Positions 7,618 to 61,784 of a stretch of 64,000 bases of DNA are shown one piece after another (the stretch's first letter is position 1; the number at the start of each line of letters is the position of its first letter). Position numbers and translations under genes: made by a program. The stretch covers positions 64,001-128,000 of IMG/VR virus record IMGVR_UViG_3300033182_000538, one strand, 5' to 3'. This stretch comes from a virus. The notes under the pieces were generated by a model. The model was not told where the DNA came from, ran no database searches, and saw nothing but the letters and a program-made list of their open reading frames with translations.

Positions 7618-7992
7618 TTATTTTAATGCTTCTGATAGAATCCAACCTAACAAACCAATGATACCGCTGAAAAGAACCCATAATGCTCTACTTACACCAG
7701 ATTTCCAATCTTGTAACTTTTCTATCTCAGTTTCTAACTCAAGAATTCGTTCGTTACTACCTTCAGAAGCTTCTCTATGTTCTGTGTTTTTATTTACACG
7801 AACGATTACACCATTTTCTGGATTAAGTAATGTATACTTAATATCGGACATATCTTCTTTTAAATCGTGATACACATTCTTGATTTCAGTAATATCACTT
7901 TCCATTCGTTTCAACTCACCATTTGGGAGTTTAGTTTTCATTACTGATAACTCATTAAGAATATTTTCTAATATGTCTTTTTGTGTAGCCAT
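7618..7992 (-). CDS. Coiled-coil protein with C-terminal TM anchor
   Basis: Heptad-rich, LPNGEL and PENGVIVRVNKNT, C-terminal ALWVLFSGIIGLLGWIL; start reassigned to MATQK (AGAGG upstream). Confidence 0.7.
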   Translation of the reverse strand: MATQKDILENILNELSVMKTKLPNGELKRMESDITEIKNVYHDLKEDMSDIKYTLLNPENGVIVRVNKNTEHREASEGSNERILELETEIEKLQDWKSGVSRALWVLFSGIIGLLGWILSEALK

Positions 7993-8009
7993 TTTAAATC
8001 CTCTTAGTA

Positions 8010-8276
8010 CTATGTCCAAATAGCGGATGCGATTGATTGTACTAACGAGTTTTCACCAGAGACATCAGTAGCATCACCATTATCTTCAACAAATCTATAA
8101 ATAAATCTATGAATTTTATTTTCTACTGGTAAATCATTATCAGAAACATCATCAATTGTAACCTTTTCGTGAATGAGAATATAAGGATGAGCTATATTCA
8201 TACCAGCGTCACCATCAGGGTCTTCTGCTAAATATACATCAGCGTGTAAAAAGTCGATTGTTTTTGTTATTGCCAT
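8010..8276 (-). CDS. Small acidic protein, probably virion-associated
   Basis: MAITKT start, DVSGENSLVQSIASAIWT end; late-type motif upstream. Confidence 0.55.
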   Translation of the reverse strand: MAITKTIDFLHADVYLAEDPDGDAGMNIAHPYILIHEKVTIDDVSDNDLPVENKIHRFIYRFVEDNGDATDVSGENSLVQSIASAIWT

Positions 8277-8875: not shown

Positions 8876-9157
8876 TTATTCGTTTACAAATATAATCTCA
8901 TCACCAACGTGCATATGAGCCTTCTTTAATGTTGGTGCTAATAAAGGATGTTCTGCCATCGAACTATGCGCAGCGTGAACACAGTATGGGCAATTTTCCT
9001 CATATACCTTATCAAGAGTTTCAATCACATCTTCAGTTTTAAGTTTGATTTCAACGATATCTTTTTGAATCTCTAATGTTGTGTTTAAAACCCAAGCACA
9101 TACACCTAATATAAGTGTACCTGCAAGTCCTGTTATTATTTTACTATCTAATTTCAT
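8876..9157 (-). CDS. N-terminal TM + coiled-coil protein with CxxC/His-rich tail
   Basis: IITGLAGTLILGVCAWVL; CPYCVHAAH...H...HMH. Confidence 0.65.
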   Translation of the reverse strand: MKLDSKIITGLAGTLILGVCAWVLNTTLEIQKDIVEIKLKTEDVIETLDKVYEENCPYCVHAAHSSMAEHPLLAPTLKKAHMHVGDEIIFVNE

Positions 9158-9952: not shown

Positions 9953-11023
9953 TTAAATCTCCAACTTTTTGTCGGGAGTTTTGAAATCTTTTTTACGCAT
10001 TACAGTCTTTGCAATGGCTTTGTTTGCCTGTTTCATAAATGGAATGTTGATGTTTGTTCTATCATCAACTGCAACCAATGAGTTGTATTTGTTGAGGAAT
10101 TCAACGAACTCTTTCTTATGTTTAGATAGTCTCTTAAAGAATCCAATGAGTTCTGCTTGTGAGATTTCCTTACCATTACGAGGGTCGTTCAATCTATCAA
10201 AGAAGTGTTTGTCGGTTAGTACCACATCTACTGGATTGAGTTTCTTATCAGCAAATTGGTCAATCTTCTGAAGGTCTCCCATTGGGATTTCGTTGATTGG
10301 TAGTTTATTCCAACCTTTTTCTTTGACTATTTTTCTACCACTATCTTTTACAGTCATCAAGTGGTTTTTGTCGTGGTATATCTTTACATACTCAACACCC
10401 TTACCACTTTTGAATAGTTTCTCAGAACCATACTTAGCTACATCTTTTAAAAATGAGTCTGATGACCTTTTGGTTGTCTTTAGTACTGGTTTGTTATTAC
10501 TATCATATCCAACCAAATCAAATCTAACACCACCAAACTCGTTGATTGTTGATTCATCAAGAAGTCTATATTTTAGAAGTGGTTTACCATTGATTGTGAT
10601 GTCACCCTTTTCGTTTTTACCGATTGACTTCACTACGATTCTCTTATTCTTGAATTTACCACCAAGGATTGTATCACCAACTGAAATAGGAATGTTGATG
10701 TCTTCACCAATCGGTTTCATCCCAGCAGACTTTCTCAATTTGTTGAGTTGGTCGAGTGTCTTCTTTTGAGCAGGTGAGCCAGGCATTTGTCTCATTGCCT
10801 TGTTGATAAGTTTCATCATCTCAAGGTCAGTACCTTCTTGAATCTTGGCGTTCATATGTTTCTTATACAAATACATAAGGAATGGAGTGAGCTCCTTTAC
10901 CATCTTCGCCTTTTCTTTCTGAAAATTGTGCGATACCGTCACCTTATCCCCTGCTTTAGGTGGATGGTGGATGGTCTGAACAGCTGACCTTTTTATTTGT
11001 TTTGTAGTGATTCCAAGCGGCAT
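9953..11023 (-). CDS. Modular hypothetical protein, probable internal head protein
   Basis: Short domains joined at IQE/IGE/LDE/INE sites; last domain HFFDRLNDPRN...KTVMRKKDF. Confidence 0.6.
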   Translation of the reverse strand: MPLGITTKQIKRSAVQTIHHPPKAGDKVTVSHNFQKEKAKMVKELTPFLMYLYKKHMNAKIQEGTDLEMMKLINKAMRQMPGSPAQKKTLDQLNKLRKSAGMKPIGEDINIPISVGDTILGGKFKNKRIVVKSIGKNEKGDITINGKPLLKYRLLDESTINEFGGVRFDLVGYDSNNKPVLKTTKRSSDSFLKDVAKYGSEKLFKSGKGVEYVKIYHDKNHLMTVKDSGRKIVKEKGWNKLPINEIPMGDLQKIDQFADKKLNPVDVVLTDKHFFDRLNDPRNGKEISQAELIGFFKRLSKHKKEFVEFLNKYNSLVAVDDRTNINIPFMKQANKAIAKTVMRKKDFKTPDKKLEI

Positions 11024-11042
11024 TACAATCGTTCCATTAATT

Positions 11043-11372
11043 TTATTTGTGTTTTGCGTTTTCTATTTCTAACTCTTTTACTACTTTTCTTAGTTCATCT
11101 ACTTCTTTTTGTAAGTATTCGATTCTAAGGTCTTGTTTTGCGTCATCAGGTAATGCACCCATTTCACCTCTTGGCCACTTTACTCTAAATTCGTGATTTA
11201 ATTCAACATCATCTTGCATTCTAATTATATCTAATTGTAATTGAGAAATCTCTGCGGTTAAACTAAACCAAACACCTGCGACAGATACAATACCTAATAC
11301 CATTCCTATCAATGCTTTAATGTCTAATTGTACTTTAGACTTTTCACCTATTATGTTTTCTTGCGCTTCCAT
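11043..11372 (-). CDS. TM + coiled-coil protein (paralog of 12593..12877)
   Basis: IGEKSKVQLDIKALIG + TM + heptads. Confidence 0.7.
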   Translation of the reverse strand: MEAQENIIGEKSKVQLDIKALIGMVLGIVSVAGVWFSLTAEISQLQLDIIRMQDDVELNHEFRVKWPRGEMGALPDDAKQDLRIEYLQKEVDELRKVVKELEIENAKHK

Positions 11373-11401
11373 CGGTTATTTATCTCCTATTAATATAAAT
11401 G

Positions 11402-12046
11402 TCATAACCGTTGCATCTTTTTTAGATACTTGAACATTTCGTTACCAAGTTTCTCACCAAATCGTGAATCTGATGGGTAGTGAGCCCTTGCTATATTTCT
11501 TGAATAAGATATATCCTTACCAATACTCATAAAATTGTATTGATGGTCAGGATACATATCACCCAATACTTTAGCAATCAGTATACCCTGAGTAGAGTGA
11601 CCACTTGGATAAGATGGAGTTTTCATCGACTCCAACTCATTACCTCTTAGTGGTATGTTTACCAAAGGGTGTTTCGCCAATTGTGTTGGTCTTGGTCTAT
11701 TATATAAGTATTTAAGTGTAGTGATAATAATTGAAGAATCATCTAACAAAGTTTCAACTAATTGTTTAGGAAAGTCCAATCCAGCCGTATCACAATATTC
11801 TTTGAATACTTTAGAAACATTATCCATCTCTTCAACAAACTTTTTATCAGATGGTAATTGTGATAATTGTTGTAATTCTATCTTTACTTTAGATGAATCA
11901 TTACAATGTGGTGGTTGTCCTGCGAACTGTTTCCATTCAAAATCCTTCAACATAGATGGAGTTTGTTTCATTCTCTTGAGATGTTTAGATTTTATCTCTT
12001 CAGAGTATCCCATTGTTTTTAGTTGAACGATGTCTGATAATTTCAT
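11402..12046 (-). CDS. PAP2/vanadium-haloperoxidase-family acid phosphatase
   Basis: KYLYNRPRP (KxxxxxxRP), PSYPSGH, SRNIARAHYPSD. Confidence 0.9.
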   Translation of the reverse strand: MKLSDIVQLKTMGYSEEIKSKHLKRMKQTPSMLKDFEWKQFAGQPPHCNDSSKVKIELQQLSQLPSDKKFVEEMDNVSKVFKEYCDTAGLDFPKQLVETLLDDSSIIITTLKYLYNRPRPTQLAKHPLVNIPLRGNELESMKTPSYPSGHSTQGILIAKVLGDMYPDHQYNFMSIGKDISYSRNIARAHYPSDSRFGEKLGNEMFKYLKKMQRL

Positions 12047-12177
12047 CTTCCTTGTCCGTTGTAAGGTTTTTTGTAATTCTTAGCATTCTTACTCTTACTA
12101 TTCTTAGTTTTTGCGTGAACACCTGGTTTTTTTCTTTTGTGACTCTTTAGTTTTGTGGATGATATAATTTTTGCCAT
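12043..12177 (-). CDS. Very basic 44-aa protein
   Basis: Manually translated MAKIISSTKLKSHKRKKPGVHAKTKNSKSKNAKNYKKPYNGQGR; stop overlaps next start (ATGA). Confidence 0.7.
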   Translation of the reverse strand: MAKIISSTKLKSHKRKKPGVHAKTKNSKSKNAKNYKKPYNGQGR

Positions 12178-12180
12178 AAT

Positions 12181-12588
12181 TTAAAATTTAGAAGATTCTT
12201 TGATTTCATCTATTGTTTCTTGGAGTTCTTCTAAATCAACAGGACACTCCAAATCCAATCCTGCCTTAAAGGTCTCCTGTAAAATACCATCTTTAAAAAT
12301 TAAGATAGTGGGAGCCATTCTGATTCTATATTTCTTTTTAGCTTCAGGCGATACAGCAACATCACATCTATAATAGTTACTAATTCCTTTTACTTTATTC
12401 CAATCTTGAAATGCGTTTATATCATTGAACTTTGCCCAAAATTCAACAACTACTATTGATACTTCATCATCTCCAAATGCTGACTTCTCGTGTATCTTTT
12501 CTTCGTATGTTTTGTCACTTATCCATTCTTGACCGTGTAAATTAAATACACTCATTAATAAGAAACTGATTAATAACAATTTTTTCAT
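12181..12588 (-). CDS. Exported thioredoxin-fold protein lacking CxxC
   Basis: Signal peptide MKKLLLISFLLMSVFNLHG-Q; VVVEFWAKFN where WCxxC is expected; YRIRMAPTILIFKDG; start reassigned to 12588. Confidence 0.75.
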   Translation of the reverse strand: MKKLLLISFLLMSVFNLHGQEWISDKTYEEKIHEKSAFGDDEVSIVVVEFWAKFNDINAFQDWNKVKGISNYYRCDVAVSPEAKKKYRIRMAPTILIFKDGILQETFKAGLDLECPVDLEELQETIDEIKESSKF

Positions 12589-12592
12589 TTCA

Positions 12593-12877
12593 TTACCTCG
12601 TTTGTTGTATCTGATACAATCTCTCATCTATTTTATCAAGCTTTTCTTTGATTTCATCAACATCATCTTGAGTATCCATAATTGTTTGGCGGATGAGCTC
12701 ATCTTTCATATCAAATTCCATTCTATCAATAACAGGTGCGGGTAACTCTTTAGCTTCTTGTATATCGGCTTGAAGGGCAAACCACATACCAACCACTGTC
12801 GCTACAGCGAAAAGAATGATACCTATCGTTTTAAGGTCAAGTGTGATTTTAGTATCTTCACCAATTTGCTTTGCCAT
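12593..12877 (-). CDS. TM + coiled-coil protein
   Basis: IGEDTKITLDLKTIG + TM (IILFAVATVVGMWFAL) + heptads. Confidence 0.7.
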   Translation of the reverse strand: MAKQIGEDTKITLDLKTIGIILFAVATVVGMWFALQADIQEAKELPAPVIDRMEFDMKDELIRQTIMDTQDDVDEIKEKLDKIDERLYQIQQTR

Positions 12878-12888
12878 TTTTATCCTTA

Positions 12889-14130
12889 TTACCTAAATGT
12901 ATAGTTAATACCAAATGTTGTTATGAAGAACTTAGAATCCCACATTCTTGTGTATTCACCTTCAGCGAATAATCCAACGGATTTACTCAACTTCCAACCT
13001 AAGTTAGCGCCAACTTGGAAATCCCACCATTGTTCACCAGTTGCGGCATCAGCCAAACCATACTGGTCCCAATCGTTTCTGAATAAGTAAGATAATGGAA
13101 CTCTACCATATTCATCGGTGTCACCCATCACATATTTGTGCATTGGTAAAAATGCCGTTCCGTATGCGTGAACCCAAAACTTTGAATCATAGTGATAGTA
13201 ATCAAACCCAACTACTGGCGATATCACTCCGAATAAACTTGTGTTTCCTAATACTTCTTGATTGTATAATGAAATTAGTCTCTTGTAAGCTCCATCTCTA
13301 AATTCTAAATCTGAAGATGCGATTCTATTTCCATCCGGGTCCCACCAAAAATATCCGTATATTTGTTCTTCTTCACCCGTGATTGGGTTGTTGATGGTAG
13401 TAGTGTAAAATGCGTCTTGATATCCGTATTCATACGCTAATTCATACCAATAGTTTACTTGGTCGCCATTTGCGTCTAAAGCACTTACCCAAATTTCATA
13501 TGGGTTTACACCATATACTCTTTCGTGAGTTCTAAATGCACCGCCTGCTGATAGTGAGAATTTTTTACCTATTGGTATTCTTCCCCTAACATCAACTGCA
13601 TCATAATTAAAATCAATAGCACCTTGATATCTTCTTTCTAATTTAACAATGTGGTGTTTACCTGTATGTCTAAGGAAGTATCTTTCGTTTTCCCATACCT
13701 CACCTCTTCTTCTTTCCTTTTCCCAATGAAATATATATTCCCATCCCATTACAGCAGAAGTGGGTGCGATTAGTGCGTTTTGTCTTTCTAAGTTTTGGTC
13801 ACCAGTCCAGAAATTACCTGGCTTTCTTTCGTAATCAAATCTACCAAGTTTACGAATACCAAATCCGATTCTATAATCGGCTGGGAAGTATTCAGTTACA
13901 TCAACAACTTCAGGTACATCATAAATACCTTGCCCATCAGGTGTTCTAATTAAATATTTCTTATCCGATGATTCGTATGGCGCTCTATAATCACCTGCTC
14001 CGTATACCGTAGCATACTTAAAGAAACTATCGTAAAATTGTTTTAAAATGCCATCATCCTTCTTTTTACTTTGAGCACTAGCAGGAAGGATAAATAATAT
14101 ACTGATTAAAATTGTTATGAACCTTTTCAT
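12889..14130 (-). CDS. Predicted outer-membrane beta-barrel protein
   Basis: Signal peptide ending ASA-Q; aromatic-rich alternating strands (FSLSAGGAFR, WDFQVGANLGWK, VGLFAEGEY); C-terminal beta-signal-like TTFGINYTFR. Confidence 0.7.
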   Translation of the reverse strand: MKRFITILISILFILPASAQSKKKDDGILKQFYDSFFKYATVYGAGDYRAPYESSDKKYLIRTPDGQGIYDVPEVVDVTEYFPADYRIGFGIRKLGRFDYERKPGNFWTGDQNLERQNALIAPTSAVMGWEYIFHWEKERRRGEVWENERYFLRHTGKHHIVKLERRYQGAIDFNYDAVDVRGRIPIGKKFSLSAGGAFRTHERVYGVNPYEIWVSALDANGDQVNYWYELAYEYGYQDAFYTTTINNPITGEEEQIYGYFWWDPDGNRIASSDLEFRDGAYKRLISLYNQEVLGNTSLFGVISPVVGFDYYHYDSKFWVHAYGTAFLPMHKYVMGDTDEYGRVPLSYLFRNDWDQYGLADAATGEQWWDFQVGANLGWKLSKSVGLFAEGEYTRMWDSKFFITTFGINYTFR

Positions 14131-14155
14131 AACTCCCCTTTTCTAAATGTTTATC

Positions 14156-14410
14156 TTATTTTTTTGCGAACTTTTCTAATCCCGCGATACCAAAACAGCC
14201 AAGGGTGATGAATACAAAAGAGTTATAGATGAACTCATTGATTACTAAATCTTTTCCAAAGTAACCAGTTGCTAAATCTACCGTTGCGAACACTACCATC
14301 ACAGCAAACGACATAAATCCGATTACGTTTTTTTCGTTTACATCGTTGTCATCTTTAAAAATGTCTTTAAAAGCCATCCAACTCCTCCTAATATAGTTTA
14401 TCATACCCAC
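14156..14410 (-). CDS. Putative holin (two TM)
   Basis: Two TM segments, basic C-terminus EKFAKK, next to the endolysin. Confidence 0.55.
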   Translation of the reverse strand: MGMINYIRRSWMAFKDIFKDDNDVNEKNVIGFMSFAVMVVFATVDLATGYFGKDLVINEFIYNSFVFITLGCFGIAGLEKFAKK

Positions 14411-14488
14411 AACTCTTTTTATAATAATTATACTGATTTTTTGTAAAGATGCTCAGCGAATCCTATTTTTACTGTTAAATCGACTATA

Positions 14489-15100
14489 CTATACAATATC
14501 ATTTGAATTAATTAATGTATATGTAAATGAGTTACCCCACACATCTCGTGCTTTTCTACAAATCTCCATAAATAATTTGAAGTCATCATTTGCGGCTATC
14601 ACTTGACATCCAGCAGACCACTTATCTACCTGTACTGATTTACCACCTTCTCTAGCAGTTGCTCTATGGATATTGATGCCATAGATACCTTCGGTTACAT
14701 TCTCTTCGATAAAGTCATAGGTGTCATCTCTATCACCATCACGATATACCTTTAGTGGTTTTTTCTGCCCCAATGCTTCGTACTTACCTTGGTGAAGTCT
14801 AATTTTATGTGAACCTCTGTATTGACCCTCTTTAAGAATTGCTACTCCGTTTTTATTTAGAAGTTGTTTCTCAGTCCAATGTGAACCAGGGTCGGTTGTT
14901 GCCTCAAAGCAGTGGAAGTTCCACTCACCATTCTCATCTTTGTAAGAGATAGTAATGTGGTCATCAAACTTGTTTGTGACCTTACCATTTGTGTCAGCAT
15001 TTCTAACACCAACGATGTTTACATCATAATTGTCTGAAGTGAACCACTTATAACCTTTTCCTATTACAGCGGCTTCGATTTGTTCTCTTGTGTAACGCAT
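14489..15100 (-). CDS. Putative endolysin, L,D-transpeptidase (YkuD)-like Cys peptidase
   Basis: GINIHRA...WSAGCQV (H-xn-SxGC); NIVGVRN, KFDD, TTDPG. Confidence 0.7.
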   Translation of the reverse strand: MRYTREQIEAAVIGKGYKWFTSDNYDVNIVGVRNADTNGKVTNKFDDHITISYKDENGEWNFHCFEATTDPGSHWTEKQLLNKNGVAILKEGQYRGSHKIRLHQGKYEALGQKKPLKVYRDGDRDDTYDFIEENVTEGIYGINIHRATAREGGKSVQVDKWSAGCQVIAANDDFKLFMEICRKARDVWGNSFTYTLINSNDIV

Positions 15101-15412
15101 TTATTTCCTTTTCTTTTTACCTGCACAATGTGCTTTTTGACTAAATCCTTTTGGATTATTACAATCTATTGATTTCTTATACTTGTCTGACCACTTCTCA
15201 TCAACTGAGTTAATAAGTCTTTCTAATGCTTGTTCTAACTTATTAGGTAAGTTTTTATGTTTAGTTGAAGCGTACTTTTTCAAGTCAGCTTTAGACATAC
15301 GTTTAGCCGTATCTCTAATATCCTTAGAAACATTAGATGGTTTTACATCACCCTTTTTTAGAGCGTATGCTAATCCCATATATTTTTGTTGTTGTTTAGA
15401 TTTAGCTGGCAT
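15101..15412 (-). CDS. DUF3008-like basic protein fused to a KWS..IDC..PKGFSQKAHC module
   Basis: MPAKSKQQQKYMG...KKYASTKHKNLP; start reassigned to 15412 (AGGAG upstream). Confidence 0.7.
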   Translation of the reverse strand: MPAKSKQQQKYMGLAYALKKGDVKPSNVSKDIRDTAKRMSKADLKKYASTKHKNLPNKLEQALERLINSVDEKWSDKYKKSIDCNNPKGFSQKAHCAGKKKRK

Positions 15413-15425
15413 ATAAACTCCTATA

Positions 15426-15617
15426 CTAATAAATATGTAGGAATTCAAAAGGAACTGACCATTCCATATCAAAAGGGTCGCTAACTACGGCTTCTCCCCT
15501 TTGTTCTCTGAGTGATATAAGAGTCACCTTTTCGCCCTCTACCAGACTTCCCTTGAATGTTGAGTAAGTCTTCTTCAGTATGACTTTTTTTCCTATTAGA
15601 TTTTCCAAATTTTTCAT
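15426..15617 (-). CDS. Small beta-rich hypothetical protein
   Basis: ORF track; ends just before the late-type motif; overlaps 15481..15672. Confidence 0.55.
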   Translation of the reverse strand: MKNLENLIGKKVILKKTYSTFKGSLVEGEKVTLISLREQRGEAVVSDPFDMEWSVPFEFLHIY

Positions 15618-15672: not shown

Positions 15673-15910
15673 TTCGGATTACCTTTAAATTTTTGAGTTT
15701 GTCCAAGAATTCTTCCACGGAATAAGATTTTGATTTTTCATCTTTGATTATCACCTCTTCTAAGGTGTCGGGATACTTTTCTACCAATCTGACTAAGATT
15801 TCGAACCCTTGGTCTGCCCAAAAGTTTTTAAACGAAACCTCGCCTAAGATGTTTGTTGAGTAGTTTACATCTTCTTCTGAATCTTCTGGTAGTAATATAA
15901 AGTATCTCAT
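15665..15910 (-). CDS. Hypothetical phage protein
   Basis: ORF track; NILGEVSFKNFW; ATGA coupling. Confidence 0.75.
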   Translation of the reverse strand: MRYFILLPEDSEEDVNYSTNILGEVSFKNFWADQGFEILVRLVEKYPDTLEEVIIKDEKSKSYSVEEFLDKLKNLKVIRNG

Positions 15911-32316: not shown

Positions 32317-33731
32317 ACCTTGTAAATATTAAATCTTTCTCTTGGTTTCCAATTTTCAAAACATCCATCAATAGCATCAATGAATCTTTCACCCATACTT
32401 TCTGATGCCATTCCACTATCACCTGAAATCCACTCGTGACCTTTTTGACCAATTTTTTCTAAGTGTTCTCTACCAGCTCTAAAAGCAAATCCTAACTTTT
32501 CAGCTACATCCATAAAATCACATCTATCATCAAAGATATATGGAGTTACTGGCGAACCTTGAAGTGAACGATTTGATGGCCATACTACATAAGCCCAATC
32601 ACCATATGTGAGTAACTCATTGTTTTCCCACTTTCTCCTATCGTGTAAAGAGCCGTGTTCTACATAATCCTTTTCAGTCAATGGAATACCCATATATTCA
32701 AAACCACATTGGTCTTGAAGACCGCCAGTTACATTTACGATAATTGGTGTACCAGCTCTAAGTGCCTCACACGATGCAAGACCGAACCCTTCGTTTGATG
32801 CGATGTTAAGAATGATATCACCTGAGTTGTAATATAGATTCAAATCCTCGGTTGAGAATTTAGTATTAGTAAACTTGTATTCACCATAGTGACCATTGTG
32901 TTTGATTACTTCAGGTATATCAGTACCATTGTTATCACTTGGTACAGTGTGTAAGAACAAACATACTTTCTTATCTTGATGTTGTTTAGCAAACTCGTTA
33001 AATGCAAGTACTACATCACCTGGCACTTTTCTACGAATGTTTCTATTATTCCATAGAACCACAAAATCAAACTCAGTCAATCCAAACTTTTCTTTGAACT
33101 TCACCAACTTTTCATCATCTGATGGAACTGGTTTGAAAAGTTTAGATACTCCGTGTGGAATATACTTGTATGCCCAATCTTCCTTTGCCATACCATACTT
33201 CTCAAGAGTTCTCTTGTTAATACCATATGTTTGTTTTGAGATTGACATCAACAAATCACAACTTGCGTAGAACGGAGCGTTCCACATTGGGTCTGGTAAT
33301 GAATCCCAAATGTTATAATACATAATAGGACATATTTGCCTAACCTCGTTTTCCATATCATACAACCATTTCCAAAAACGTGGGTCGGTAAAGTGTAGGA
33401 TAGCATCTGGCTTTTCAAGGTTTATCAACTCCCTAAGAACACCAGGATTTCCGTAACCTGTATGTGCGTATATCTTTACATCGGCATCTTCAACACCAGT
33501 TTCCTTTCTCACATCTTCTGAAATATCAAATTTCTTTCCGTGGTCTGGATGTTTTAGTGCCGCACCTAACTGAACCCAATCGTATTTGTGAACAGTTGAT
33601 AGTACAATCTCTTTTGATTGTGTAGCGATACCACTATGTACTCTAAGGTCATCCGAAAGAAGTAGAATCTTTTTCTTCTTCGGTTTATTTGGGTCTACCT
33701 TTTTTAGTTTAGGTAGTTTTAATTCTTGCAT
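32313..33731 (-). CDS. Glycosyltransferase family 4 (GT-B)
   Basis: SDDLRVHSG, NRNIRRK, NEGFGLASCEA. Confidence 0.9.
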   Translation of the reverse strand: MQELKLPKLKKVDPNKPKKKKILLLSDDLRVHSGIATQSKEIVLSTVHKYDWVQLGAALKHPDHGKKFDISEDVRKETGVEDADVKIYAHTGYGNPGVLRELINLEKPDAILHFTDPRFWKWLYDMENEVRQICPIMYYNIWDSLPDPMWNAPFYASCDLLMSISKQTYGINKRTLEKYGMAKEDWAYKYIPHGVSKLFKPVPSDDEKLVKFKEKFGLTEFDFVVLWNNRNIRRKVPGDVVLAFNEFAKQHQDKKVCLFLHTVPSDNNGTDIPEVIKHNGHYGEYKFTNTKFSTEDLNLYYNSGDIILNIASNEGFGLASCEALRAGTPIIVNVTGGLQDQCGFEYMGIPLTEKDYVEHGSLHDRRKWENNELLTYGDWAYVVWPSNRSLQGSPVTPYIFDDRCDFMDVAEKLGFAFRAGREHLEKIGQKGHEWISGDSGMASESMGERFIDAIDGCFENWKPRERFNIYKV

Positions 33732-59546: not shown

Positions 59547-59945
59547 TTATTTTACATCAACTATTCTGAATAGAGATGTTTTTAAAACTTTATACCCATC
59601 ACCATCGGTTAAAATCATAGAATTTCTATAATTTTCCCAATTTACTTGATAGCTTTTATCAACAACCCCACCATTTAGATTTGATATCAATCTATTAAGA
59701 GCGTTGATAGTGTACATTGTATTTGTTTCTTTTTTTCTATGTGTCAATATTGTACTACTTAAAAATTTAGTATTATGATTTGGTATAATATTGTAACTCA
59801 CAACTAATTCGTTTGAAGGAGATAGTTTGAATATGAATATTTTTCTACTATATAAGTCAAATTGATTGATGTCTTGTAATATGGACTCAAAATTATCTTC
59901 ATTAGTAAATGTACATAGTAATTGTGTTCTCACCCATATCTCCAA
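59547..59945 (-). CDS. Hypothetical phage protein
   Basis: QLLCTFT...HRKKETNTMYTINALN...VNWENY; start may be GTG at VRTQ. Confidence 0.75.
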   Translation of the reverse strand: MEIWVRTQLLCTFTNEDNFESILQDINQFDLYSRKIFIFKLSPSNELVVSYNIIPNHNTKFLSSTILTHRKKETNTMYTINALNRLISNLNGGVVDKSYQVNWENYRNSMILTDGDGYKVLKTSLFRIVDVK

Positions 59946-61784
59946 TTATTTCTTTAAAAGACCTGTACCTTGGTCTTCCATATCAACGATATCATCTTCA
60001 AATTTCTTCAAAGCTTTTGGACTCCAATCATCCGTGTTGAACGTACCTTGTTTCAATGCGTGAGCCATAAATGGAGTTTGTGCCATTTCCATAACAGGAG
60101 AAGCTCCTATACCACGAGTTCTACCTTTCATATAAAACAATGGGTACTTTTTATTGTTCTCGTGTTTGAATAATATTTGGCCTGAATCATAGTCGATTTC
60201 TATCGAATCTTGTATTACTCGATTCAACTCTTCTTTCGAAGTATTTCCTTTTCTTACCTCATTTAGGTCTTCATCTAAAGTTTGTTTGAATCTTGACCCA
60301 AATAATGTGATAAGAGTATTTTCATTTAATACAGCCCCATCAGGGTCAATACCATATGTAGTCATAAACTCATCTACACCACCATCTTTTATGGTTTCGT
60401 TTAATCCTAAAGTTTCAGAGATATGCATTGATTTTATAATGTGAGATTTCATACCTCTTTTAGCATCTTCAGATGAATTTATAGCATCAAAAGCCCTTTT
60501 AGTCAATCCATTATCAGATTCTCTGAGATGTTTGTATTCTTTAACGTGGTAAGTTTGTAGTAATTTAGCGTAAGCTTTTTGCTCATTACTATTGGCTGTA
60601 CCTAATTCGATTTTCTTGATTAAAGTTTGAGGGTCACTAAGTATCTTAAAATAAGTTTCTCTACTCGAACCCATAAATTGTTTTTGGTCTTGTGGATTTT
60701 CTAATAGCTTTTTATATGATTCCTCAATCTCTCTAGCTCCAACTGTACCCGTTACATATTTGAATCTATCTTCCAAATCTTGTTTGTATGCATCGATAGA
60801 CATAGCTTCTGATAACCTTTTGTGGTCATTTGCATTCATTGTACCTTCTAAGTCAGCCAACAATAATTCAGATTGTTTAGCCCATCCACCATTATTTAAA
60901 AATACAGCACCATCTTTTTTGAGAGATACCCCAATATTTTTACCATCTTTTGTTCTAACGAACATATCCGATGATGTTTCAAGATTTGGGTCTACACCAA
61001 TCGCTGTTCTACCTTCTGGCGTATCCCACGATACAGTATCTATATTTTCCGAACCAATTGTTTCACTAATTTTCGTTAAAGTAGCTGATGCTGATTTTAC
61101 CCACTTTTTACCCGATGATGTATTTAGAACGTGGTCTTTTGAATTTACAACTTGGTTGAAATATTCGGAAATTTCTTCAATTGACTTACCCTCTTGCATC
61201 ATTCTAAGCCCTTTATGAACCATAGCTTCACCAGCTCTTGATTCAGCTGTACCAGCACCTACACCTTTTACACCTTTTTGTTTGGCTTGTGCAGCGGCTT
61301 CGGTTTTTGTCATCATCAATTGTTTATCAGTAATTTCGTGGTCTTTTGAGGTAAGTTCTGATTTAGTTTGGTTTGTACTATCTGACCCTTGTGGTTTATT
61401 TGTAGATTTAGCATCTTTCTCAGCTTGAGTCATCATAGCTTCTTGGTCAGATTTAGAAAACTTTTCATCATCTTTCTTTTCTTCACCATCAGGTTGTATG
61501 GCTGTATACTTATCACCATCCTTTTTAAATCTCTGAGCGTCTTTCTTGTCCTCATCACCCTTTTTAACGTAAACACCCTTACCAACGTGAGAGTATTTAT
61601 CATCATCATCGGCTTCTAATAGATTTACAATAAGTTTTTCTGCGATTTCTTCACCCAATAGTTCGGATGCTACTTTATATGTAGCTTTCAAGGATTCTTC
61701 GGTAGTAATACCCTCATTTAAGGATATACCTACTTCATTCCAAACTTTTTTAGCGATGTAATTGATAAGTTTCTTCATAACCAT
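59946..61784 (-). CDS. Large probable head-cargo protein with PD-(D/E)XK nuclease-like domain
   Basis: Leader to LLE-A, K/D-rich linker, then SRAGEA...TSSDMFV...GVSLKK (E...D...SLK). Confidence 0.55.
   Translation of the reverse strand: MVMKKLINYIAKKVWNEVGISLNEGITTEESLKATYKVASELLGEEIAEKLIVNLLEADDDDKYSHVGKGVYVKKGDEDKKDAQRFKKDGDKYTAIQPDGEEKKDDEKFSKSDQEAMMTQAEKDAKSTNKPQGSDSTNQTKSELTSKDHEITDKQLMMTKTEAAAQAKQKGVKGVGAGTAESRAGEAMVHKGLRMMQEGKSIEEISEYFNQVVNSKDHVLNTSSGKKWVKSASATLTKISETIGSENIDTVSWDTPEGRTAIGVDPNLETSSDMFVRTKDGKNIGVSLKKDGAVFLNNGGWAKQSELLLADLEGTMNANDHKRLSEAMSIDAYKQDLEDRFKYVTGTVGAREIEESYKKLLENPQDQKQFMGSSRETYFKILSDPQTLIKKIELGTANSNEQKAYAKLLQTYHVKEYKHLRESDNGLTKRAFDAINSSEDAKRGMKSHIIKSMHISETLGLNETIKDGGVDEFMTTYGIDPDGAVLNENTLITLFGSRFKQTLDEDLNEVRKGNTSKEELNRVIQDSIEIDYDSGQILFKHENNKKYPLFYMKGRTRGIGASPVMEMAQTPFMAHALKQGTFNTDDWSPKALKKFEDDIVDMEDQGTGLLKK

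Follow-up and report, generated by a model that had tools for sequence, protein, structure and literature searches.

How might a phage in which no classical spanin can be recognized open the outer membrane (OM) of its host at lysis? The question is raised by positions 11043 to 15100 of a 64,000-nucleotide stretch of viral DNA (the window), which comprises bases 64001 to 128000 of the 166,988-bp IMG/VR virus record IMGVR_UViG_3300033182_000538 (CheckV completeness, 87%). All real genes of the window lie on the minus strand, and its G+C content is ~34%. The initial annotation, made from the letters alone, had placed six features here, among them an endolysin, a holin-like protein and a putative OM barrel, and had read the group either as a noncanonical OM disruption system or as a superinfection exclusion or transport complex. 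All six are encoded where it put them and on the minus strand, with corrected starts for two of them (12588 and 14377; see below). We take the region to be the lysis cassette of an uncultured, ~167-kb marine phage of the myophage type, whose host most likely belongs to the Flavobacteriia. Three of its genes, which we call the trio, are the subject of this work:

12889 to 14130, minus strand: exported 413-aa protein, modeled as an OM β-barrel of ~14 strands (signal peptide, AlphaFold2 model, structural matches)
12593 to 12877, minus strand: 94-aa inner membrane protein with an N-terminal transmembrane (TM) segment and a periplasmic heptad-repeat helix, predicted to have an i-spanin-like topology (hydropathy, sequence)
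12181 to 12588, minus strand: exported thioredoxin-fold protein without catalytic cysteines (family profile against PDB, Pfam)

We are evenly divided on the view that, in marine Bacteroidota phages, these proteins form a trans-envelope machine, with a phage-only barrel linked to the inner membrane by a thioredoxin adaptor devoid of Cys and by a coiled-coil anchor, that represents a previously unknown class of lysis device, being either the first spanin built on an integral OM protein or a system that connects the OM to the holin and sets the timing of lysis.

The 413-aa protein is modeled as an outer membrane barrel

The 413-aa protein begins with a signal peptide ending in PASA/Q (the slash marks the predicted cleavage site) and ends in FGINYTFR. 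Its mature chain is 19% aromatic and contains no Cys, and its strands alternate polar and aromatic faces. From an alignment of 37 sequences reaching down to 26% identity, AlphaFold2 (AF2) produced a model with ~14 long antiparallel strands (predicted local distance difference test [pLDDT], 78.3; predicted template modeling score [pTM], 0.67). When this model was compared with the PDB by Foldseek, the significant matches were solely OM barrels (chitoporin, OmpM1, NanC, PelB and BamA; E values of 7e-5 to 1e-3), all with low TM-scores, and a VIA structural search of 48,161 chains returned OmpG (Z 10.7, root mean square deviation [rmsd] 6.1, 195 residues aligned), Tsx (Z 10.6) and OpcA (Z 10.5), with CymA, autotransporter barrels, TamA and LpxR as further matches. 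The named language-model neighbors of the protein in the ESM Atlas were likewise all OM barrels. The C terminus has a β-signal, G407-I-N-Y410-T-F412, after which comes an additional R or K; such a basic residue at the end is atypical, and over 73 homologues the ending reads [IL]-N-[YFIV]-T-[FL]-[RK].

Searches with sequences were negative throughout. The family has no match in Pfam, PHROG or NCBIfam; a Pfam search with 37 diverse members yielded no credible match, the sole hits being three chance ones to unrelated families, each from a single member (E 0.012 to 0.044), and the family profile matched nothing among the PDB sequences. Because all of the top structural matches are OM barrels, and of varied kinds, the model gives good support for membership in the OM β-barrel class and none for any specific family. 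The barrel that the initial annotation had read from amphipathic aromatic strands was thus borne out at the level of class.

Homologues are abundant. We found 1655 (E ≤1e-3) in a collection of 5.8 billion proteins, all unnamed and mainly from marine metagenomes, 184 in a library of representatives at 50% identity and, by an alignment-based scan, at least 589 IMG/VR contigs with the gene; a single-sequence pattern scan of IMG/VR gave no match. A tblastn search of 50,697 phage records was also without a match, so the gene is absent among the cultured phages searched. In 185,579 species genomes there were four matches, all on contigs of metagenome-assembled genomes in which the phage gene order recurs; two of these contigs are binned as Bacteroidota. 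The barrel therefore appears, from these sequence searches, to be a new family restricted to phage contigs, no cellular homologues having been found.

The family is conserved to an extent that is unusually high for a barrel, with a mean column identity of 66% among homologues sharing 52 to 82% identity. Even among members of only 26 to 35% identity, E131 and H321 never vary, and H202, S304, D370 and E390 hardly do. The most conserved motif, G-I-R-K-L-x-R-F-x-Y-E, lies at the end of strand 2 and in residues 95 to 128 and is invariant down to 26% identity; residues 95 to 128 were modeled with a pLDDT below 50. Both termini of OM barrels face the periplasm, and given this rule and the strand order of the model, residues 95 to 128 can be placed on the periplasmic side. 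On the model, the motif and the turn that follows it make a likely docking site.

A cysteine-free thioredoxin and a coiled-coil membrane protein

The likely start of the thioredoxin gene is at 12588 (MKKLLL..), not at 12627, 4 nucleotides (nt) past the stop codon of the 94-aa gene. As a single sequence the protein falls just under the Pfam cutoff for PF00085 (E 9e-5; 22.9 bits versus 23.5). A profile of 27 family members, however, matched 217 PDB thioredoxins, with a best E value of 1.4e-11 (the best 60 range from 1e-11 to 3e-5). In the profile alignment, F-N-D-I-N stands against W-C-G-H-C, so that N-D-I-N occupies the place of C-x-x-C and both catalytic Cys residues are replaced. The cis-Pro loop is kept (R-M-A-P-T aligns with R-G-x-P-T, and P93 is invariant), and the C-terminal residue is a conserved aromatic. 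No conserved Cys was found anywhere in 63 members of the family. The exported, redox-dead thioredoxin of the initial annotation was thereby confirmed.

The 94-aa protein has a single TM segment at about residues 17 to 39 (Kyte-Doolittle hydropathy, 2.29), followed by a net acidic flank, and a heptad run V-x2-I-x3-L-x2-I-x3-L-x2-I with 3-4-3-4 spacing at residues 69 to 86. Its predicted topology has the features by which i-spanins are recognized: a type II protein with an N-terminal TM segment and a periplasmic coiled coil. Family matches are weak (phrog_1009 and DUF7365), and conservation is concentrated in the cytoplasmic N terminus and around the TM segment. The initial annotation had called this protein and a 109-aa protein encoded at the other end of the cassette paralogues. 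This holds for the N terminus and TM segment, to which their similarity is confined (38% identity over 37 aa; E 1e-9); the remainder differs, and the 109-aa protein belongs to a wider, distinct family, phrog_20984.

The three genes form a conserved unit among lysis genes

For comparison we assembled 86 loci, which fell into 53 groups after dereplication at 90% barrel identity. Genomes with the module are ~145 to 180 kb in size and stem from ocean samples, those of Tara among them. In 84 of the 86 loci the barrel gene is followed by that for the 94-aa coil, mostly at 57 to 83% identity, and the thioredoxin gene comes next in 74; after dereplication the coil is present in 47 groups and the thioredoxin in 49 (~90%). 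The genes are tightly packed, with median gaps across the loci of 2 nt (barrel to coil) and -1 nt (coil to thioredoxin), and in the phage studied here the 94-aa gene begins 11 nt past the barrel stop codon. Six loci have the permuted order coil, short thioredoxin, barrel, the 108-aa short form proving genuinely homologous to the thioredoxin (E 2e-8), and in one locus (L100) a barrel only 26% identical still has the coil and then the thioredoxin behind it. Because this order is kept across loci and groups, and because the three genes stay together in the permuted loci and in L100, barrel, coil and thioredoxin are one conserved, tightly coupled unit. The initial annotation had left itself open to failure on two counts, a structure prediction without a barrel and unlinked genes in relatives; we checked both and found a barrel and linked genes.

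Clustering of neighboring open reading frames (ORFs) showed that the trio sits among lysis genes. Two of these adjoin it here:

14489 to 15100, minus strand: YkuD-fold Cys/His peptidoglycan peptidase of 203 aa, endolysin candidate (PHROG, AF2, VIA)
14156 to 14410, minus strand, likely start 14377 (73 aa): small two-TM membrane protein, holin or antiholin candidate (hydropathy, ribosome-binding site)

In the relatives, the endolysin is of the Peptidase_M15_3 type (PF08291, E 9e-14; phrog_894) in 22 groups, of the PG_binding_1 plus Amidase_2 type in 8 and of the YkuD type in 4, so that 34 of the 53 groups have an endolysin from one of these three unrelated families no more than 3.5 kb away. A frequent order is two-TM gene, barrel, coil, thioredoxin, endolysin, 4-TM holin-like protein and a conserved ~370-aa multi-TM coiled-coil protein. 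Constant genes beside a swappable endolysin are the typical appearance of a lysis cassette.

The 203-aa protein, which the initial annotation had called endolysin-like, matches phrog_3000 (E 9e-31) and phrog_33083, "endolysin" (E 2e-14). Its AF2 model (pLDDT 79, pTM 0.82) had as its 20 best VIA matches only L,D-transpeptidases and carboxypeptidases of the YkuD fold (Z 5.5 to 8.7; Csd6 8.7, Pgp2 8.6, DpaA 7.2), the next match being at Z 3.6, and its best Foldseek match was 8qzg (probability 0.98). H145 and the motif S162-A-G-C165 do not vary over 20 sequences. By sequence there was no Pfam YkuD match and no match among PDB sequences with either the single sequence or a profile, so that the fold search alone resolved the YkuD assignment. 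We infer from its position in the cassette alone that the protein acts as a hydrolase and not as a transpeptidase.

The ATG at 14377 of the two-TM gene is preceded by a TAGGAGGAG ribosome-binding site and is the probable start codon. The product has the two hydrophobic segments noted in the initial annotation, ends in ..EKFAKK and has no holin or other family match in Pfam or PHROG; it is a candidate for the holin role. Its gene adjoins the endolysin gene both here and in the cultured Flavobacterium phage vB_FspM_immuto (160 kb), where its homologue gp192 (58% identical) immediately precedes the annotated endolysin and holin, and it adjoins the barrel in 18 of the 53 groups. The gene order in immuto is gp192, endolysin, holin and, further on, the homologue of the ~370-aa protein. 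Relatives also encode another, 4-TM protein that shares 62% identity with the annotated holin of immuto; its gene is lacking from the genome studied here.

The ~370-aa protein, which is composed of four N-terminal TM segments followed by a long coiled coil and further TM segments, delimits the lysis cassette at its end in the relatives and in immuto (gp185). In the present genome it is encoded outside the window, at genome positions 32317 to 33408 (minus strand), ~44 kb from the cassette; it is also found at L009:10970-12130 (comparison loci are cited by number and positions) and in at least 573 IMG/VR contigs, and it has no family match. Immuto and L100 also carry, in the lysis cassette, an overlapping gene pair, gp187/gp186 in immuto (L102:7356-8019; L100:6654-7386), one product having an N-terminal TM segment and a coil and the other a coil and a C-terminal TM segment. 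As far as their sequences go, this pair could be a separate spanin-like device.

No classical spanin or cassette lipoprotein is recognizable

A six-frame search of the whole contig with Rz/Phage_lysis (PF03245), Rz1 (PF06085) and DUF2514 (PF10721) gave no match over the cutoffs, the best score, 11.8 bits for PF03245, being below its cutoff and at the far end of the contig. Since the contig is 87% complete, this absence is not absolute. The statement of the initial annotation that there was no lipobox o-spanin also stood, since positions 10700 to 12300 contained, in any frame, no ORF of at least 18 aa with a lipobox, and none was found within 3.5 kb of the barrel. On the coding strand the lipobox scan listed three lipoprotein-like ORFs, all 13 to 24 kb from the cassette, of which one encodes an exported nuclease and two are unrelated.

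The nuclease gene is of the Endonuclease_NS type (PF01223, E 2.5e-24), has a lipoprotein-type signal, ..SLAC/G, and lies ~3.8 kb before the window at L088:7638-8231 (minus strand; genome positions 59638 to 60231), and its product would, by its signal, be an exported or envelope-anchored nuclease. A homologue occurs 2 kb upstream of the barrel in contigs of the L002 type.

In a 2018 census of spanins (Kongari et al.; PMC6139136), Bacteroides and Croceibacter phages were counted as spanin-less, among the ~13% of phages without an identifiable spanin. The same census raises the possibility that "an OMP could act as an o-spanin" (section 15), OMP standing for outer membrane protein; our literature search found no paper describing such a case.

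A proposed role in lysis and its alternatives

How might these parts work together? The reading we favor, although we hold it tentatively and at somewhat less than even strength, is that the trio is a trans-envelope lysis module, an analogue of the spanins in which an OM protein takes the place held in classical spanins by a lipoprotein. The 413-aa protein would be exported by the Sec pathway, cleaved before Gln and inserted into the OM by the β-barrel assembly machinery (BAM) as a barrel of ~14 strands. The 94-aa protein would sit in the inner membrane with its N terminus inside and its short coiled coil reaching into the periplasm. The Cys-free thioredoxin-fold protein would be a periplasmic structural adaptor or chaperone linking barrel and coil, probably docking on the periplasmic side of the barrel at the G-I-R-K-L-x-R-F-x-Y-E motif and the poorly modeled turn after strand 2. 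Once holin and endolysin had removed the peptidoglycan, the complex would break or fuse the OM and thereby act as two-component spanins do, an integral OM protein replacing the lipoprotein o-spanin. Folds, export signals, gene order and coupling, the cassette context and the lack of classical spanins in this contig are observations; the binding of the three proteins to one another, their topology and any role in disrupting the OM are what we infer.

Three points strengthen the case for lysis: the trio is coupled and conserved, the endolysin of the cassette is swapped among three families around it, and this genome has neither a classical spanin nor a cassette lipoprotein. Of the two readings in the initial annotation, OM disruption gained by these results.

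Several observations weigh against it. Classical spanins usually depend on disulfides; barrel and coil have no Cys at all, and the thioredoxin has no conserved one. The predicted periplasmic part of the 94-aa coil is only ~55 residues, which is short for spanning the periplasm. At least six loci (L002 and L005 types) have the trio away from any recognized endolysin. A profile search of the complete immuto genome found no barrel, coil or thioredoxin, and the trio is absent within 9 kb of 12 related cassettes of two-TM gene, endolysin and holin. Because immuto keeps this backbone without the trio, the trio is optional among relatives and looks like an insert into a recognizable lysis cassette. 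We also considered that it might replace the TM-coil pair of the gp187/gp186 type, and dropped the idea because 51 loci anchored on the 370-aa gene showed no clean either/or pattern (trio only in 7, pair only in 7, both in 5, neither in 32).

The cassette lipoproteins of the relatives count on the same side, since 22 of the 53 groups have the trio together with such proteins, and where they coexist the barrel need not be the OM anchor. Three lipoprotein families recur, none of them present in this window: a Pro-rich one of ~135 aa, right behind the M15 endolysin, with the look of an o-spanin (e.g., L046:9517-9921); one of ~185 aa with the motif C-E-K-E-E, a surface export-like signal, which lies inside the module in 16 loci (e.g., L002:9239-9805); and one of 56 to 62 aa with a lipobox and a hydrophobic C terminus (e.g., L008:10686-10856). 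Finally, the many invariant charged and His residues of the barrel may point to an enzyme or a specific channel, which they fit as well as they do a passive anchor.

Some of these same observations would fit a module for lysis timing or superinfection exclusion, which we regard as unlikely, though a serious contender. The barrel would then be a sensor, a decoy or a receptor mask, and thioredoxin and coil would pass its signal to the two-TM holin-type protein, much as in RI/T or the Imm/Sp exclusion system of phage T4 but with other parts. Genes for timing and exclusion are usually accessory and patchy among close relatives, as the trio is, and in the 18 groups already mentioned the trio lies directly beside the two-TM gene. 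That the 94-aa protein is conserved in its N terminus and TM segment, the part it has in common with the 109-aa protein, fits a partner within the membrane better than a passive anchor. It also resembles T4 RI in size and topology (97 aa, N-terminal anchor, helical periplasmic domain), and conservation is high in the predicted outer loops of the barrel. However, neither sequences nor profiles showed any similarity to RI, T, Imm or Sp, and the Phage_holin_T family is absent; to our knowledge, no timing or exclusion system has an OM barrel; and the swapping of endolysins around a constant trio would be left unexplained. It is thus the optional occurrence of the trio and its coexistence with lipoproteins that keep the exclusion reading of the initial annotation in play beside OM disruption.

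A set of envelope genes of the moron type, unrelated to lysis, would account for the loci with no endolysin nearby. Here the barrel would be a phage porin, an uptake channel or part of a surface-remodeling complex that happens to be encoded near lysis genes, as are NmpC/Lc, Lom and Bor of the lambdoid phages. Substrate channels are among its best structural matches (OmpG, Tsx, CymA, NanC and KdgM-type channels), and in the model its lumen residues appear charged and conserved. A barrel with a surface lipoprotein is a common Bacteroidota design for uptake, and the C-E-K-E-E motif of the lipoprotein found within the module in 16 loci is typical of surface-exposed Bacteroidota lipoproteins. Yet a channel needs neither an inner membrane coil nor a Cys-less thioredoxin, both of which accompany the barrel in ~90% of the groups. 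Moreover, the family has no cellular homologues, unlike the known porin morons of phages, and conversion genes are less expected in large phages of the lytic type. We consider this explanation rather improbable.

The chance is smaller still that the barrel is an OM enzyme, a lipid A or phospholipid hydrolase comparable to LpxR, PagL or OMPLA, that weakens the OM chemically at lysis with coil and thioredoxin as its regulator or chaperone. There is a precedent of a kind in the colicin lysis proteins, which permeabilize the OM by activating OMPLA, and the unusually high conservation of the barrel, its invariant E131 and H321 and nearly invariant H202, S304, D370 and E390, and the presence of LpxR among the VIA matches (Z 9.1) would all suit an enzyme. 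No enzyme barrel stands out from these matches, however: OmpG, Tsx and OpcA rank above LpxR, the rows being tied within ~1 Z, and S304 and H321 are not paired in the strand register of the AF2 model.

Least probable is an export accessory, with the barrel as an OM conduit for the glycans of an adjacent ~18-kb glycosyltransferase cluster that begins ~0.8 kb upstream at 15907, or as a PorV-like helper for phage proteins with type IX secretion system (T9SS) tails: PelB, BcsC and other polysaccharide export barrels are among the structural matches and the gene preceding the barrel in L100 encodes a protein with a Por_Secre_tail domain, but Por_Secre_tail is without a match in this genome, and neither PorV nor FadL is prominent among the structural matches (FadL homologue, Z 7.6). 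Most neighbors of the barrel are ribonucleotide reductase and lysis genes; the first glycosyltransferase accompanies it in only 6 of the 86 loci, for which reason glycan export was rejected as the leading explanation.

Other genes in and around the cassette

Three further genes follow the trio, of which the first two were not listed in the initial annotation:

11402 to 12046, minus strand: PAP2-family phosphatase (PF01569, E 2.4e-9; 37.5 bits versus a cutoff of 27.2)
12043 to 12177, minus strand: very basic, Lys-rich ORF of 44 aa (ORF list), whose stop codon overlaps the PAP2 start
11043 to 11372, minus strand: 109-aa TM and coiled-coil protein, family phrog_20984 (PHROG match, E 5e-13)

The PAP2 protein has all three motifs of its family intact (K-x6-RP, PSGH and SR-x5-H-x3-D); unlike most PAP2 members, it has no signal peptide or TM segment. 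Its gene is accessory, being present in 3 of the 86 loci. If released through holin lesions, the phosphatase could act on lipid phosphates of the envelope. The 44-aa ORF has tblastn matches in 9 of the 86 loci and no family match in Pfam or PHROG, and its membership in the module is uncertain. We set aside the idea that it is a disruptin-like peptide, because with few hydrophobic residues and several Pro and Gly it does not form an amphipathic helix.

Homologues of the 109-aa protein occur in Pelagibacter podophages. In HTVC027P a small downstream gene overlaps that of the homologue, which is two genes ahead of one for a peptidase M15; in the T7-like phage HTVC121P the homologue is encoded two genes ahead of the large terminase, a position that we take to be near the site of gp18.5/gp18.7 in T7. 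In both phages (L096:2480-3110 and L097:2495-3093, respectively) the overlapping gene that follows encodes ~72 aa with two Cys and a shared E-[LI]-K-E-H-R-I-Q motif, and neither product has a lipobox. Judged by sequence, the two pelagiphage genes may be an unrecognized spanin-like pair, and the 109-aa protein is an i-spanin-like candidate in its own right; in the window, no partner gene follows it. Further downstream, the window encodes another two small proteins of the membrane and coiled-coil kind: one of 93 aa that combines a TM segment at its N terminus with a Cys/His-rich tail containing C-P-Y-C-V-H (8876 to 9157, minus strand) and a 133-aa tail-anchored coiled-coil protein with a weak match to phrog_937, "hemolysin" (7618 to 8019, minus strand; E 8e-4).

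On the other side of the cassette, a DUF3008 gene adjoins the endolysin gene (15101 to 15472, minus strand). At its 3' end, ~90 bases of DNA are 80 to 86% identical to the Prochlorococcus and Synechococcus myophages P-TIM68, S-SCSM2R and S-SRM01, which suggests gene exchange between phages of hosts from different phyla. Scans for promoters showed no enrichment, either of sigma-70-type promoters (22 found versus 18.9 expected from shuffled sequence) or of the T4 late promoter motif TATAAATA (8 found versus 9.8 expected).

Host and significance

What host does this phage infect? The initial annotation had pointed to a Gln directly after the predicted cleavage site of both exported proteins, and this extends to 71 of 73 barrel homologues and to most of the thioredoxins. 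Gln at +1 after signal peptide cleavage is the "Q-rule" of Bacteroidetes (PMC5837995). Homologues of the YkuD protein are found in 24 cultured or reference phage records, of which 19 are Bacteroides phages or crAss-like phages, and relatives of the cassette proteins occur in Flavobacterium and Bacteroides phages. In the related contig L100, the divergent barrel (L100:3802-4869) is directly preceded by the gene for a 1084-aa protein with a Por_Secre_tail, a T9SS sorting tail (L100:546-3800); this protein is a phage-encoded T9SS substrate. Q-rule, immuto cassette backbone, YkuD relatives and T9SS-tail neighbor together indicate a host in the phylum Bacteroidota, probably in the Flavobacteriia.

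The trio is a concrete and abundant candidate for how Bacteroidota phages pass the OM at lysis. If it acts as proposed, the barrel would be the first phage-only family of OM barrels and its partner a new structural use of the thioredoxin fold. Since the closest cultured phage, immuto, is without the trio, it can serve as a natural minus-control background. Much of the carbon of algal blooms is turned over by marine Flavobacteriia, and the mechanism and timing of their lysis therefore bear on carbon flow in the ocean.

Comparison with known systems

How does the trio compare with systems already described? For the endolysin alone, the likeness is to YkuD enzymes such as Csd6, Pgp2, LdtMt2 and DpaA, with which it has in common the fold (Z 7.2 to 8.7, rmsd 3 to 4 Å, 104 to 132 residues) and the arrangement His...Ser-x-Gly-Cys; it differs in being a stand-alone 203-aa phage protein with neither a Pfam YkuD match nor a signal peptide.

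Lambdoid phages also encode OM proteins near their lysis genes, namely the porins NmpC/Lc, Lom and the lipoprotein Bor. These resemble the barrel as phage-encoded proteins of the host OM with genes near those for holin, endolysin and spanin. They differ in that they are single genes of cellular families and conversion factors of prophages, whereas the barrel is phage only, has two envelope partners and belongs to large phages of the lytic type. The RI/T system of T4, from a large myophage, is similar in having an accessory protein of ~95 aa, with an N-terminal anchor and a helical periplasmic domain, that acts with a membrane holin; there is no sequence similarity, and RI/T includes neither an OM protein nor a thioredoxin fold.

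Envelope disruptors other than spanins are known as well: the "disruptin" gp28 of phiKT is a cationic peptide (bioRxiv 10.1101/515445), LysB of mycobacteriophages is an esterase (PMC5707550), and LysZ of corynephages is an inner membrane protein (bioRxiv 10.1101/2025.06.24.661397). Like the trio, these are products of extra lysis cassette genes, first found by their position in the cassette, that deal with the outermost envelope layer in spanin-less phages, but none is an OM barrel or a set of three proteins.

The two-component spanins (Rz/Rz1 of lambda, PseT.3/PseT.2 of T4 and gp18.5/gp18.7 of T7) have in common with the trio a place in the lysis cassette, an inner membrane coil anchored at its N terminus, a partner anchored in the OM and tight linkage, and for OM disruption the trio has no rival candidate in this genome. 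In the spanins, however, the OM partner is a small lipoprotein, whereas here it is an integral barrel of 413 aa; the trio adds a third subunit of thioredoxin fold, its barrel and coil are free of Cys, the periplasmic part of its coil is ~55 residues, and it has no sequence similarity to any spanin family. The trio has no described counterpart and, if the spanin reading holds, it would be a new variant of the spanin principle.

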